Source: a virus
Strand: one strand, 5' to 3'
DNA: 11,108 nt
UHGV virus genome: UHGV-0246901
The notes under the pieces are model-generated. The model searched no databases, was not told the DNA's origin, and saw nothing but the letters and a program-made list of their open reading frames with translations. Positions 5,911 to 9,614 of the stretch are shown piece after piece. Every line of letters starts with the position of its first letter. Position 1 is the first letter of the stretch. The translations under genes were made by a program, and so were the position numbers.

Positions 5911-5953
5911 TTAATCACCTCATCAGCCAAGATGGTGAGAATACCCATAAAGA

Positions 5954-5982
5954 ATATTAACACCATCTTAACAATCAGTCAA
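5954..5982 (-). promoter_or_regulatory. sigma70-like promoter on minus strand (TTGACT, 17-nt spacer, TAATAT)
   Basis: Reverse complement of 5977-5982 is TTGACT and of 5954-5959 is TAATAT, 17 nt apart; lies in the 64-bp gap between the tail-fibre gene and the small membrane-protein genes. A 7-bp inverted repeat GATGGTG(5931-5937)/CACCATC(5961-5967) overlaps it. Confidence 0.5.
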
Positions 5983-5989
5983 CAAGGGA

Positions 5990-8380
5990 TTAAGCAGTTC
6001 TTACCCAAGCCATTAACTTGTAGAACTGGTTAGTAACACTAAATGCTGAACCAGAACCTGTACCACCAGTGTTACCACTAACTGTATGAGTGTGAGCACC
6101 GATACCTACAGAGTGGGTGTGAGCACCAGTGTTACTTGTAGTACCAGACCATGTGTGTGTATGGTTACCAGTTGTGTTAGTGTTAGGGAATTTGTTATCA
6201 GTTCTGTCAAGCCAGTCAAGAGTTCTTGTCTTATTGTTACCAATAGTGGTATATCCGTACTGAGCATCACCACCATTAACCAATAGCAGACCTAAGTGGT
6301 GAGCGTGGTTACCAGCAGCACTTGTTGTACCACTTACAGAGTGAGTATGACCACCAGTGCTATTAGTGTTCTTCGTACCATAATCAAAAGATGAAGTGGT
6401 AGCAGAGAAACTATGGGTGTGTGAAGGCAGATTACCAACAGCTAACGTCACAGAGTCTGAACCACCTGTTGTAGCAACATCTGAACCGTTTGCTGCTGCA
6501 ATCCTGATAGTTCTACCAACACCATTGTTCAGGTACGTCCAAGTTAACCCAGGAAGTGCTGTATTAGGGTCAACGTTGCTGTTAAACCACGTTACAATAC
6601 CTACTGGATAGATTTTATTAAGGTCTGTAGAGTCACTTACTGCCTGTGCAATCTTCTGGTCAGTTTCAGCTTTAGTGTATGCACCAATATCTGAAGGGGT
6701 TGGTTTAAAGGCAGTTGTATAAATCTGTGCTTCTCCGGCATAGTCACCATTTTTGTCATAGGCATAGGTAAATGTTGCCAGTCCATTTGAGCCATACACA
6801 AAAGAGATTCCTCTTGCATGTGCAGCAGTCTTATTAGAGTGAGCAACATGAATTGCCAATTCTTTCAGTCCACTAGTAACCGCATTGTTTCTGACAAAAC
6901 CTGAATATCCAAGATTAAAACCTGAAGGGTTTTCAAGGTTATCTACAGAGACAGTCATTAAGGATTGGTTTAATAACTGAGTTTTAACAAAATATCTAGC
7001 ATCTAAGTTAGACCAATCAGAAGGTTGAACTTGACCAGTAATGGTTAGATTCTTATTAGCCTTAATCGCTGAAGGCATAAGGGTAATTTGAGTCCCAGAG
7101 TAGCTGTTGTTTAAGGCTACATCAGTAGAATTTGTGCCACCTACACCTACCCACCACCTAGATACATTCGCAGTATCAACACCACGGATATATTGTGGCT
7201 GCCCCTGTGTCAAGTTCCTCAATACTAGACCTTCATTGTTAGATACAATAGTCTGCACATTTGTAAAAGTGTTAGCCACATTAACCTTAGCAAGATTACT
7301 CAAAGTAGCTGCTGGAATATATCTAGAGTCGATATTAGCCCAATCAGAAGGTTGGACTTGACCAGTGATTCTAAAATTATTGTTTACTGCGACATGCCCA
7401 TTGTCAAGTCTAAGATAAGAACCATACACATAGTTGCTGATGAATACAGCAGGTGTATTATCACCATTTCCTACATACCACTTACCAGAACCATCATTAG
7501 CTTCGGCTTTAACGTATAGTGCAGCATTTGCTACAGTATTTTTCAACCTTAAAGCAGCACTATCACTGATAATAAGTAGGTTTCTGCTAAACGTGTTAGT
7601 GCCAGTGAAATTGTTATTGGCAGCTAACTGTGCAAATCTCTGATTAGCTGCTGTCTGAGTAAAGTATCTAGCATCTAAGTTAGAGAAGTCAGAAGGTTGC
7701 ACTTGACCATTGATTGATAAAGACCTATTAAAAGAAGCAGCCGTGCCTAGAGTGAGGATGGAACCTAGTTTACTCTCGATTTGAACATCAAGACTACCCC
7801 TAATCAGGTTCCCAATAGCCCAAGTTTTTTCATTGCTTGCATCCCTACCTACAATAGCAGAGTATGCACTATCCCCACTCACAGGAGATTTTAGTGTTAA
7901 CTGTTCCCCATTTGCTACAATGGTCTGTTTAGAGTTAAATGTGTTTGTAACAGCAAGCCTTGCGTATCTTGCATCATTCTCTTCATTAGTTCTCATCCCA
8001 AGTTCATTAGGACTTGGCTTATTCAGAGTATGATAAACAGTTGCCGACCTTGAAGCGTCTGCAATAGTTAGTTTAAGGCCGTTTGCGTTGATTTTAAAAG
8101 TCTTTAAAACATCCCCAATAGTAATCTCAGAAGAGCCTGTAGGGTCAAAGACTGCCTTGCCACCGTAAAGTAACTTAACAATTCCTAAGTCACCCTTCAT
8201 AGTGCTACCAACAATCTGAACAAATCTTTCAAGTTTAAAAGATGCTAAGAAGTCTTGATAGGTCATTCGACGGTCTTCATCACCCAGCATTTCAGGTCTC
8301 TTTTTAACTCTGACATGAAGAAGGTCATCTGAATGGATTGTATCGATTGAGTTTAATTCACTCAACTTGTAATCTGCCAT
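5990..8380 (-). CDS. tail fibre protein (796 aa) with collar-like domain and His-X-His repeats
   Basis: Three internal repeats each ending GQVQPSD(W/F)xN(L/I)DxRY; C-terminal segment resembling the phage tail-collar domain (LPGLTW...GNLPSHTHSF); 6-7 HxH motifs (HTHS, HAHH, HTHT...); C-terminus ...MAWVRTA shared with the 395-aa paralogue. Confidence 0.85.
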   Translation of the reverse strand: MADYKLSELNSIDTIHSDDLLHVRVKKRPEMLGDEDRRMTYQDFLASFKLERFVQIVGSTMKGDLGIVKLLYGGKAVFDPTGSSEITIGDVLKTFKINANGLKLTIADASRSATVYHTLNKPSPNELGMRTNEENDARYARLAVTNTFNSKQTIVANGEQLTLKSPVSGDSAYSAIVGRDASNEKTWAIGNLIRGSLDVQIESKLGSILTLGTAASFNRSLSINGQVQPSDFSNLDARYFTQTAANQRFAQLAANNNFTGTNTFSRNLLIISDSAALRLKNTVANAALYVKAEANDGSGKWYVGNGDNTPAVFISNYVYGSYLRLDNGHVAVNNNFRITGQVQPSDWANIDSRYIPAATLSNLAKVNVANTFTNVQTIVSNNEGLVLRNLTQGQPQYIRGVDTANVSRWWVGVGGTNSTDVALNNSYSGTQITLMPSAIKANKNLTITGQVQPSDWSNLDARYFVKTQLLNQSLMTVSVDNLENPSGFNLGYSGFVRNNAVTSGLKELAIHVAHSNKTAAHARGISFVYGSNGLATFTYAYDKNGDYAGEAQIYTTAFKPTPSDIGAYTKAETDQKIAQAVSDSTDLNKIYPVGIVTWFNSNVDPNTALPGLTWTYLNNGVGRTIRIAAANGSDVATTGGSDSVTLAVGNLPSHTHSFSATTSSFDYGTKNTNSTGGHTHSVSGTTSAAGNHAHHLGLLLVNGGDAQYGYTTIGNNKTRTLDWLDRTDNKFPNTNTTGNHTHTWSGTTSNTGAHTHSVGIGAHTHTVSGNTGGTGSGSAFSVTNQFYKLMAWVRTA
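6990..7716 (-). repeat. three dispersed ~50-bp direct repeats inside the 796-aa tail-fibre gene (about 6990-7045, 7314-7370, 7661-7716)
   Basis: Core CCAATCAGAAGGTTGAACTTGACCAGT (plus strand) recurs at ~335-bp spacing; first and third copies also share ATCTAGCATCTAAGTTAGA. They encode the GQVQPSDW..RY ends of three tandem protein repeats. Confidence 0.7.
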
Positions 8381-8426: not shown

Positions 8427-9614
8427 TTAAGCTGTTCTCTGCCATACATACAGGACGAAGGATGGCTGCTCAATGTTGAAAGCTTGTCCACCACCAACAC
8501 TATTAGTGTTCCCGCTATGCGTATGCTCAGAAGAAGAAACTGTTACAGTGCCATTGTGTGTATGTGAACCAATACCAACTGTGTGGCTGTGAGCACCAAT
8601 ACCAACCGTATGGTTGTGGTTACCAGTTGTATTAGTGGTAACACTGAAAGAGTGGGTGTGTGCACCAGCTACTTCACAGACAGCATCTGCTGAGTACCAT
8701 GATTGGTCATTCCTTGTAGACCAAACCATTGCAGGTCTTTCCGATAAACCACCACCTGCTTCATAGGTCAATCTGTGGTTGTGAGCACCAGCAGAACTTG
8801 TTGACCCACTACCAACATGGTTATGGTTACCAGTCGTGTTAGTGGTCTTAGTTCCATAGTCAAAAGAGTTAGTAGTCTTAGTTCCATAATCAAAAGCTGA
8901 AATTGACACCGTTGCATTATGAGTATGACCACCACCACTAAGAGACACAGAGTGAGAGTGTTGAGGCATGTTATTAACTGACAAAGTGACAGTTGAAGCA
9001 CCAAATACAGAACCTGCTGGTCTTGTGTCAGAGTCATAACCAACCAATGCTCTACCCTTTGAAACTAACTCCCAAGTACCTCCACAAATTAAATATGTAG
9101 AGGGGTTTGCAGAGTTCATGGAAAGATGGATAGTACCTACTGGATAGGAAGCCTGAACAGCCTTGTACAAGTTATTTACTGCTCTTGCTGTAGCGTACTT
9201 ATCTGCATCCTCATTATAAAGGTTAGATGTTGTCCAGTTCTGAACATTACTCAATCCTACCTGTGCCTTAGTTGTATTGTGTGGGTTGCTCTTGTCCTGA
9301 ATATGCTGTTGAACAAGGTTATTAACCTCTTCTGAAGACATAATCTGTAGATTTGCTCTTGCCTCAGCTACATTAACAACATCTGATAAGTTATTTGCAG
9401 CAACTAACTGAAGAGCATTAATAACATTATCTAAACCAATTTGTGTTTTAGTAACACCATGAGGGTTATTTCTTAGGCTTGAGTGTGGAGCAAGTAATTG
9501 CTCAAGAGTACATCTCTTATCCTCAATACCTTGCTTAAGATGGAAGATATCACTAAGGTCAATTGGTAAGGCTGCTTGAGGCAAGGCACTAATTTGAATT
9601 TCACCTACCGCCAT
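8427..9614 (-). CDS. tail fibre protein (395 aa), paralogue of the 796-aa protein
   Basis: N-terminal repeats NPHGVTKTQIGLDNV / NPHNTTKAQVGLSNV (phage tail-fibre repeat-like); collar-like segment ICGGTWELVSKGRALVG...NNMPQHSHSVS; nine HxH motifs; C-terminus ...VWQRTA; SD AGGAG ~8 nt upstream. Confidence 0.85.
   Translation of the reverse strand: MAVGEIQISALPQAALPIDLSDIFHLKQGIEDKRCTLEQLLAPHSSLRNNPHGVTKTQIGLDNVINALQLVAANNLSDVVNVAEARANLQIMSSEEVNNLVQQHIQDKSNPHNTTKAQVGLSNVQNWTTSNLYNEDADKYATARAVNNLYKAVQASYPVGTIHLSMNSANPSTYLICGGTWELVSKGRALVGYDSDTRPAGSVFGASTVTLSVNNMPQHSHSVSLSGGGHTHNATVSISAFDYGTKTTNSFDYGTKTTNTTGNHNHVGSGSTSSAGAHNHRLTYEAGGGLSERPAMVWSTRNDQSWYSADAVCEVAGAHTHSFSVTTNTTGNHNHTVGIGAHSHTVGIGSHTHNGTVTVSSSEHTHSGNTNSVGGGQAFNIEQPSFVLYVWQRTA
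8841..8900 (-). repeat. in-frame 30-bp tandem duplication within the 395-aa tail-fibre gene
   Basis: 8841-8870 and 8871-8900 match at 26 of 30 positions and encode a tandem SFDYGTKTTN repeat; the 796-aa paralogue has a single FDYGTKNTN. Confidence 0.8.

Follow-up and report, generated by a model that had tools for sequence, protein, structure and literature searches.

Conserved Linkers as Probable Recombination Islands in the Long Tail Fibre Shaft of a Felixounavirus-Type Phage Genome

Introduction

Felixounavirus comprises Felix O1-like myoviruses infecting E. coli and Salmonella; they serve in Salmonella diagnostics and are candidate agents for phage therapy against both hosts. The present work concerns the long tail fibre (LTF) gene in an 11,108-nucleotide stretch of the virus genome UHGV-0246901 (the whole stretch is called the window below) and the three repeat units in the shaft of its product. 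The closest described system is the orthologous protein of phage Bas63 (JohannRWettstein), named long tail fibre gp27 in a cryo-EM study (Sci Adv 2025, PMC12609058). According to this study, the fibre is a trimeric domain array with likeness to T4 gp34 and gp37, in which a 'triple alpha-helix and turn' is placed between beta-helix domains, and the 630-Å fibre lies retracted along the tail sheath. The repeat number was reported to be constant across the genus. Beta-helix domains 2–5 displayed unexpected sequence variability, for which relaxed constraint, variable host recognition or defence escape were offered as explanations. A text search of the paper returned no occurrence of the word 'recombination'.

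In T-even phages, recombination between conserved motifs was reported for the LTF/adhesin loci gp37/gp38 (Tetart et al. 1996, 1998, cited in PMC3157838), and the swapping of interchangeable fibrous motifs is thought to account for LTF plasticity. The gene considered here resembles these loci, since conserved motifs alternate with hypervariable segments. The classic T-even cases concern gp37 His boxes and gp38 glycine-rich motifs at the receptor-binding end and were shown by crosses, whereas here whole shaft domains of ~85–100 aa appear to be shuffled, the joints are helix-turn linkers, and the exchange is deduced from sequence comparison.

The rod of T4 gp34 (PDB 5NXF, 5NXH, 4UXE) shares the domain family PF20744 with the window protein according to Pfam (E 1.9e-58) and is its top Foldseek match with a low-confidence model, although sequence identity is ~17%. 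In T4, more such domains are spread over several gene products, whereas here a gp34-like rod and a gp37-like tip are united in one polypeptide. T7 gp17 (PDB 4A0T, 4A0U) and, weakly, Mu S (5YVQ) align with the unit profile; in T7 gp17 the module is present as a single copy beside the tip domain, and there is no array with repeated linkers. Among other sources, the APEC phage paper and the BASEL paper are without domain-level analysis of the fibre, the PhageMaP preprint contained nothing usable on Bas63 fibres, and a literature search on evolved VpaE1 variants found nothing.

Results

Three Repeat Units and Their Conserved Cores

The DNA of the 796-aa open reading frame (ORF) matches 240 phage records annotated as tail fibre, nearly all of them from Felixounavirus, with nucleotide identity of up to 95.7%. 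By these matches its product is assigned as the Felixounavirus long tail fibre, the orthologue of Bas63 gp27 and of Felix O1 'GP37' ORF184. PF20744 (gp37_trimer) is found in three stretches of the protein (E 1.9e-58; 194.9 bits against a gathering cut-off of 21.7). The motif GQVQPSD begins at aa 225, 340 and 449, and D[AS]RY comes after each copy (aa 236, 351 and 460). Delimited from DxRY to DxRY, the repeat units R1, R2 and R3 are 100, 115 and 109 aa long (Table 1), and each is closed by an 18-aa linker with the consensus xITGQVQPSD(W/F)xN(L/I)D(A/S)RY.

An earlier note on this DNA had described three repeats ending in GQVQPSDW..RY, with almost identical DNA at three sites ~335 bp apart. The three units with their terminal motifs are present, but the first copy continues with F and only the other two with W. 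The interval that had been given, 6990–7716, spans all three cores but leaves out the body of R1. A repeat search detected one three-copy DNA family (6989–7058, 7316–7385 and 7661–7730; 77–81% identity over 70 nt), and the 24-nt degenerate pattern GGTCAAGTNCAACCTTCTGAYTKS has exactly three matches in the window versus 0.00 expected from 200 shuffles. Core spacing is 327 and 345 nt. The conservation of the cores is clear, but 'almost identical' proved too strong: in the 45-nt core R1 and R3 differ at 5 positions and R2 and R3 at 7 (identity 84–89%), and uninterrupted identity extends over no more than 20 nt (R1/R3), 15 nt (R2/R3) and ~11 nt (R1/R2). Whole units are alike only to 33–46% in protein and ~50% in DNA. 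The repeat observation is confirmed as real and far beyond chance, and its strength was overstated.

Codon bias was considered as the whole cause of the DNA identity of the cores. Where core residues are identical, their codons agree in 27 of 40 cases versus 17.8 expected from the codon usage of the window (z ~3; the three pairs are not independent), and in the unit bodies in 30 of 69 cases versus 29.1 expected. Given the excess in the cores, codon bias could be only a partial cause.

Assortment of Cassettes Between Phages

When related LTF proteins are compared with the window protein, segment identities fall into discrete classes that assort independently; in three example proteins, the R1/R2/R3 identities are 37/100/97%, 34/41/99% and 35/98/48%. 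The N-terminus (94–98%), the NDARY linker and the cores remain conserved while the bodies vary, and DNA identity profiles display conserved islands at the N-terminus, cores 1–3, aa 561–680 and the C-terminal end. Clustering of unit bodies at 75% identity or more resulted in 31 body types, and 40 different R1/R2/R3 combinations were counted among 147 proteins. Sharp identity transitions (1920 in 325 sequence pairs, which share ancestry, so that they are not independent events) are located almost only at aa 131–150, 221–240, 251–270, 331–370, 441–470, 551–560, 671–690 and 751–760. These sites correspond to the linkers, to the leaders as far as the NTF motif, and to the edges of the fifth domain and the tip segment. 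Of the features characteristic of the Tetart-type loci, both conserved DNA motifs flanking hypervariable segments and natural chimeras with exchange points in or beside the motifs (the 40 combinations and the mapped junctions) are present in the LTF. In-register swapping of cassettes between phages would be the main consequence of the conserved tracts.

Hypervariability limited to defined segments of a receptor-binding fibre could also be produced by a dedicated diversification device, such as a reverse-transcriptase retroelement (DGR) or a Gin/Cin-type invertase shufflon. The scan of 14 ORFs in the window (11 kb) detected no reverse transcriptase or invertase domain, inverted repeats within the LTF gene were not found, and the variants are whole alternative cassettes with saturated synonymous sites, not targeted substitutions. 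The probability of such a device is regarded as negligible.

Synonymous Sites and the Age of Cassette Types

The fraction of identical residues encoded by the same codon is 0.43–0.45 between body types, which is approximately random, 0.70–0.78 in cores and leaders, and 0.83 in the N-terminus. Synonymous divergence (dS) and its ratio to nonsynonymous divergence (dN/dS) were obtained as Nei-Gojobori estimates. Between body types dS is at least 1.6 (undefined in 20–40% of pairs) with dN/dS of 0.25–0.35, while within a body type the respective values are 0.19–0.28 and 0.12–0.14. They are 0.25–0.38 and 0.07–0.09 for the backbone, 0.40–0.50 and 0.15–0.16 for the cores, and 0.25 and 0.07 for the LTF N-terminal part. 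The bodies would appear to be old alleles, each under purifying selection, within a young shared backbone. Since old bodies are placed in a young backbone, exchange points would be needed on both sides of every body, and recombination, not parallel mutation, presumably produced the mosaic, the junctions and the copy-number variants described below. Low dN/dS within types together with saturated dS between types also argues against the 'tolerated missense mutations' option of the Bas63 paper.

These estimates bear on the explanation that the cores are kept by linker constraint alone, the bodies vary by point mutation under relaxed constraint, and recombination is irrelevant. It agrees with the linker being invariant at nine residues (G, Q, V, P, S, N, D, R and Y) over 21 cassette types, with its match to the inter-domain motif of the Bas63 and T4 gp34 fibres, and with the nearly fixed repeat number. 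However, synonymous divergence of body types is 5–7 times that of the backbone or saturated, while the cores are near the backbone; the dN/dS within types signifies purifying selection instead of relaxed constraint; the body types assort independently in their 40 combinations; and one cassette is found at two positions with DNA nearly identical by eye. Constraint as the sole cause is largely refuted by these data and is considered quite improbable.

Probable Out-of-Register Moves of Cassettes

Cassette K03 occupies R1 in 41 proteins and R3 in two (P0060 and L021), and cassette K14 is R1 of L010 and R3 of L023. By eye, the DNA of L010 R1 and L023 R3 is nearly identical over a stretch that starts at the NTF motif, crosses the core and extends into YFTQ, and the flanks are unrelated. 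In the other case, R3 of L036 (P0060) and R1 of L001 are nearly identical by eye from just past NTF to GGTCAAGTTCAACC in the core, and past GGTCAAGTTCAACC each has a position-specific tail. At least two transfers of cassettes between R1 and R3 are suggested by these alignments, and the NTF motif and the core are where the junctions fall. The likeness of core 1 to core 3 between genomes is 0.80, compared with 0.81 for core 3 and its own orthologues, and throughout the genus core 2 retains an NIDSRY signature specific to its position; taken together, this fits R1 and R3 as an exchanging pair.

Another origin of the array could be a recent tandem triplication, whose unit ends are homogenised by intragenic gene conversion and which behaves as a contingency-type array of frequently changing length. 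The excess of shared codons in the cores (27 of 40 against 17.8) and the existence of one deletion variant would be in line with it. Nevertheless, the units are only 33–46% identical in protein, the three-unit layout extends to relatives of ~45% identity, the NIDSRY signature of core 2 is kept genus-wide, and paralogous cores score 0.77–0.81 within a genome versus 0.76–0.80 between genomes. Concerted evolution was not found in the latter comparison, and gene conversion among the three cores was ruled out, because sharing a genome does not make paralogues any closer. As to tandem-repeat contingency loci, the divergence of the units, the three-unit form of 241 of 244 proteins and the lack of a within-genome core excess do not correspond to that type. 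Such a triplication is considered highly improbable. Exact runs between paralogous cores reach 33–49 nt in some relatives.

Unit Number in Relatives and Length Variants

The 120 best homologues are 781–797 aa long and have three units, except for P0050 (687 aa) and one 764-aa call that starts at an internal Met. Three units are present in 25 of 25 IMG/VR relatives with a complete or near-complete gene, down to 54% identity. After the second search and the representative search were added, 241 of 244 LTF-type proteins had three units, and this layout is common to relatives down to ~45% identity. The exceptions are P0050/L027 (two units), P0122 (four) and P0121 (five).

The two-unit gene of L027/P0050 (ENA ERZ27268649) is located on a 62-kb contig with intact neighbouring genes. 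It differs from the window gene by 13 mismatches in 2064 nt (99.4% identical) and by a single precise in-frame gap of 327 bp, and the BLAST segments flanking this gap overlap by 51 nt, corresponding to the core. The junction has the R2-specific AGAATC upstream and the R3-specific GTT downstream; therefore, the crossover is placed within the 11-nt ACTGGTCAAGT shared by cores 2 and 3.

The four-unit protein P0122 is 901 aa long as called, or 931 aa from an in-frame Met 30 codons upstream. Three contigs carry this form, one of them an 87-kb scaffold in which the gene order is preserved (L038 3001–5706, ENA ERZ28599557 scaffold_93). The five-unit P0121 (1015 aa) is encoded on a 77-kb Logan contig, where gene order is likewise preserved and the neighbours are intact (L037 3001–6048, SRR22802239_169). 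Its nearest relatives, P0159 and P0160, have three units, and alignment with them reveals exactly two extra units inserted after the N-T-F motif of the unit-3 leader; the extra bodies are most like Felixounavirus R1 cassettes (68–75%). The five-unit form is present in no GenBank phage of the collection (the best match is 49% identical), and a search with the five-unit protein found no second five-unit sequence. Phages with four and five units are ~69% identical to the window in flanking genes and are therefore treated as sister lineages (Ounavirinae-like).

The copy-number variants could be assembly or library chimeras or defective genomes, the cores then serving in-register exchange only. The two-unit and five-unit forms are indeed single contigs, and the Bas63 paper saw no repeat-number variation among ICTV species. 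On the other hand, the exact runs at the deletion junction are 11 and 15 nt, below typical assembler k-mer sizes (the contig name k109_... is taken to denote the k-mer size), and the deletion is in frame and comprises exactly one unit. The four-unit form is present on three contigs including the genome-length 87-kb scaffold with gene order intact, and the five-unit gene lies in a 77-kb contig with intact neighbours. An artefact is thus unlikely, though less so than the other alternatives discussed above.

According to these variants, the fibre of this group can lengthen or shorten by entire units, though rarely. The earlier note had proposed that the tracts are substrates for unequal recombination, by which the shaft gains or loses units, and that repeat number should be compared among orthologues. 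This comparison gave two-, four- and five-unit forms, but 241 of 244 proteins have three units. The proposal is borne out in part by the L027 deletion, the unit gains and the R1/R3 moves, but copy-number change is rare, concerted evolution is lacking and the exact tracts are 11–20 nt. Unit loss or gain is the rare outcome, while cassette swapping between phages, which had been outside that proposal, is the common one.

A separate observation concerns P0192, a 779-aa Felixounavirus-type fibre labelled Methanobrevibacter gottschalkii in NCBI and UniRef. Its location on an 88-kb contig makes it almost certain that a coliphage genome has contaminated an archaeal assembly.

Predicted Fold of a Unit

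An AlphaFold2 monomer model of the LTF was used solely for secondary structure and a cautious fold search. Mean pLDDT is 49 overall and 70–87 in the unit bodies. The modelled bodies are all-beta with 5–7 strands each, and short helical turns are predicted in SNLDARY and the following leader. The top PDB matches of Foldseek are T4 gp34 (5NXF and 4UXE; E 3e-6, prob 1.0), followed by T7 gp17, with low TM-scores for this low-confidence monomer model. A profile of 21 cassette types matches the C-terminal region of T7 gp17 (approximately residues 418–481, E 2e-6) and, weakly, Mu protein S, which points to a widespread trimeric fibre module. In the search of the PDB with this profile gp34 was not among the matches, and the full-length sequence search of the PDB found the T4 gp37 tip alone.

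A unit could be regarded as a trimeric beta-structured shaft domain of the T4 gp34 rod/PF20744 type, the predicted fold being in line with the Bas63 description. The core, in agreement with the published description, comprises the end of a beta domain and the helix-turn linker to the next domain.

Discussion

The LTF shaft is best interpreted as a domain array whose conserved linkers and leaders serve as recombination islands, mostly in register and rarely out of register; the probability of this reading is put at roughly three in four. In the proposed sequence of events, the linker would be conserved first for a structural role, as the 'triple alpha-helix and turn' between beta-helix domains of Bas63. 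Because the DNA of linkers and of short leaders up to the N-T-F motif is conserved among units and among phages, these segments would form homology islands around diverged bodies. Homologous recombination between co-infecting relatives at the islands could then replace whole bodies as cassettes. Exchange mostly in register would lead to many combinations of old cassette types under purifying selection, while rare exchange out of register could result in the R1/R3 cassette moves, unit deletion (three to two) and unit gain (three to five, and the four-unit lineage). Three units are strongly preferred in the genus, probably because the length of the fibre has to match the tail, against whose sheath the 630-Å Bas63 fibre lies retracted.

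Several points weigh against this interpretation. For homologous recombination to be efficient, the 11–20 nt of exact identity that paralogous cores of the window share is a short tract. The transition counts are derived from pairs with shared ancestry and are not independent, and borders between conserved and variable segments would also arise from differential constraint alone; therefore, the case for recombination is based on assortment and on the synonymous-site data. The two-unit and five-unit variants are each represented by one metagenomic contig. Finally, the monomer model is of low pLDDT, so the connection of the core with the helix-turn leans mainly on the published Bas63 description.

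A more far-reaching version of the recombination-island reading is possible but tentative. It considers a combinatorial shaft, in which R1, R2, R3 and the fifth domain assort independently from old cassette pools (at least 31 for R1–R3), linker DNA is kept partly as a recombination joint, and the cassettes are host-dependent in function. Their function could be lateral surface-glycan binding, docking of the retracted fibre or escape from a fibre-sensing defence, and change of unit number would be an extra, rarer way of adjusting fibre length. Host-specific binding or defence escape, both of which are ideas of the Bas63 paper, would fit purifying selection within types.

The domain array of Bas63, its variability and its constant repeat number, as well as motif exchange in T-even fibres, are already published. 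Compared with the Bas63 account, the same protein is presented here as putatively composed of discrete, anciently diverged cassette types under purifying selection and shuffled at linkers, with rare out-of-register transfers and with two-, four- and five-unit variants. As far as the literature was searched, the division of this fibre into cassettes, the evidence from synonymous sites, the transfers between R1 and R3 and the two-, four- and five-unit variants are apparently undescribed.

Other Features of the Window

The features of the LTF gene and the neighbouring fibre gene are listed in Table 1. The roles of the N-terminal part and the count of shaft domains are taken from the Bas63 structure paper.

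Table 1. Long tail fibre gene, its parts and the neighbouring fibre gene in the window.
Feature	Window position	Strand	Residues (aa)	Description and basis
LTF gene	5990..8380	minus	796-aa ORF	ORF list; Felixounavirus tail-fibre matches; PF20744
Conserved N-terminal part	7964..8380	minus	1-139	Baseplate-binding region and first shaft domain; 94-98% aa identity across homologues
R1	7664..7963	minus	140-239	Body cassette type K07
Core 1	7664..7717	minus	222-239	SINGQVQPSDFSNLDARY; conserved linker and DNA homology island
R2	7319..7663	minus	240-354	Leader FTQTAANQRFAQL; body cassette type K01
Core 2	7319..7372	minus	337-354	RITGQVQPSDWANIDSRY
R3	6992..7318	minus	355-463	Leader IPAATLSNLAK; body cassette type K00
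Core 3	6992..7045	minus	446-463	TITGQVQPSDWSNLDARY
Segment of 327 bp lacking in L027/P0050	7040..7366	minus		Placement ambiguous by the 11-nt ACTGGTCAAGT at both ends
Fifth shaft domain	6716..6991	minus	464-555	Hypervariable cassette; discrete identity classes of 19-100%; breakpoints peak in aa 461-470 and 551-560
Collar and T4 gp37-like needle tip with HxH motifs	5993..6625	minus	586-796	PDB 2XGF, PF21939, PF03335
Neighbouring short tail fibre gene	8427..9614	minus	395	Similar tip; without PF20744 units

The first shaft domain is closed by a degenerate linker, KPSPNELG...NDARY (aa 121–139), and the conserved degenerate linker KPTPSDIGAY (aa 559–568) bounds the fifth shaft domain downstream. 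The LTF C-terminus aligns with the T4 gp37 needle (PDB 2XGF, aa 649–775, E 1.4e-20) with HxH motifs present, and the tip-related Pfam matches PF21939 and PF03335 are weak. In the tip (window 5993–6340, aa 681–796) a variable segment of approximately aa 681–760 is enclosed by conserved flanks bearing HxH. Its breakpoints at aa 671–690 and 751–760 are sharp, but, unlike in the shaft cassettes, synonymous sites are unsaturated (same-codon fraction 0.62).

The gene order of this structural module is the same as in Felix O1 and in the relatives L027, L037 and L038: wedge-like genes, the 395-aa fibre, the 796-aa fibre and two small ORFs, then thymidylate synthase and dihydrofolate reductase (td/frd) on the opposite strand. 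The short fibre gene (minus strand) contains a 30-nt tandem duplication at 8838–8896 (93% identity), which encodes FDYGTKTTNS/FDYGTKTTNT where the needle region begins, a motif that is single in the long fibre and in T4 gp37. Just 3' of the LTF stop and before a 64-aa ORF, a 15-nt inverted repeat (5929–5969, 87% complementary, 11-nt loop) may be a terminator or attenuator, for which a simple terminator scan gave no call. In the GenBank records of KhF1, KhF3 and XTG1 a 10-nt 'cos' is annotated inside the LTF gene (L029 1040–1049; KT184313 42018–42027; approximately window 6729–6738). This is probably an annotation artefact, as the position of a packaging site there is unlikely.

Two duplicated blocks are located in the non-coding stretch between the ORFs at 889–1329 and 1824–2207. 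The first, of 86 nt (1360–1445 and 1609–1694; 74% identity, 249 nt apart), reads TTTTAAAAGGTCTTTAAA...GGGTCTTTTAA and then a GGTAAGG-rich run; the second, of 33 nt (1439–1471 and 1566–1598; 91% identity), reads GGTATGGGTAGTTA.TC..AGCTACATTAAAAT. This stretch may be a regulatory or origin-like region; the tRNA scan found none in it. Scans for tRNA, promoters and terminators gave nothing relevant to the LTF repeats.

Significance for Felixounavirus Fibres

In the 2025 Bas63 structure, the variability among shaft domains went unexplained, and the present analysis argues against simple relaxed constraint. The variable domains would be interchangeable cassettes, which selection keeps functional and which are exchanged at defined joints. 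For the engineering of chimeric fibres, the sequences of cores and leaders could provide natural splice points. A testable idea is that host range, or sensitivity to host defences, depends on which cassettes a phage carries.

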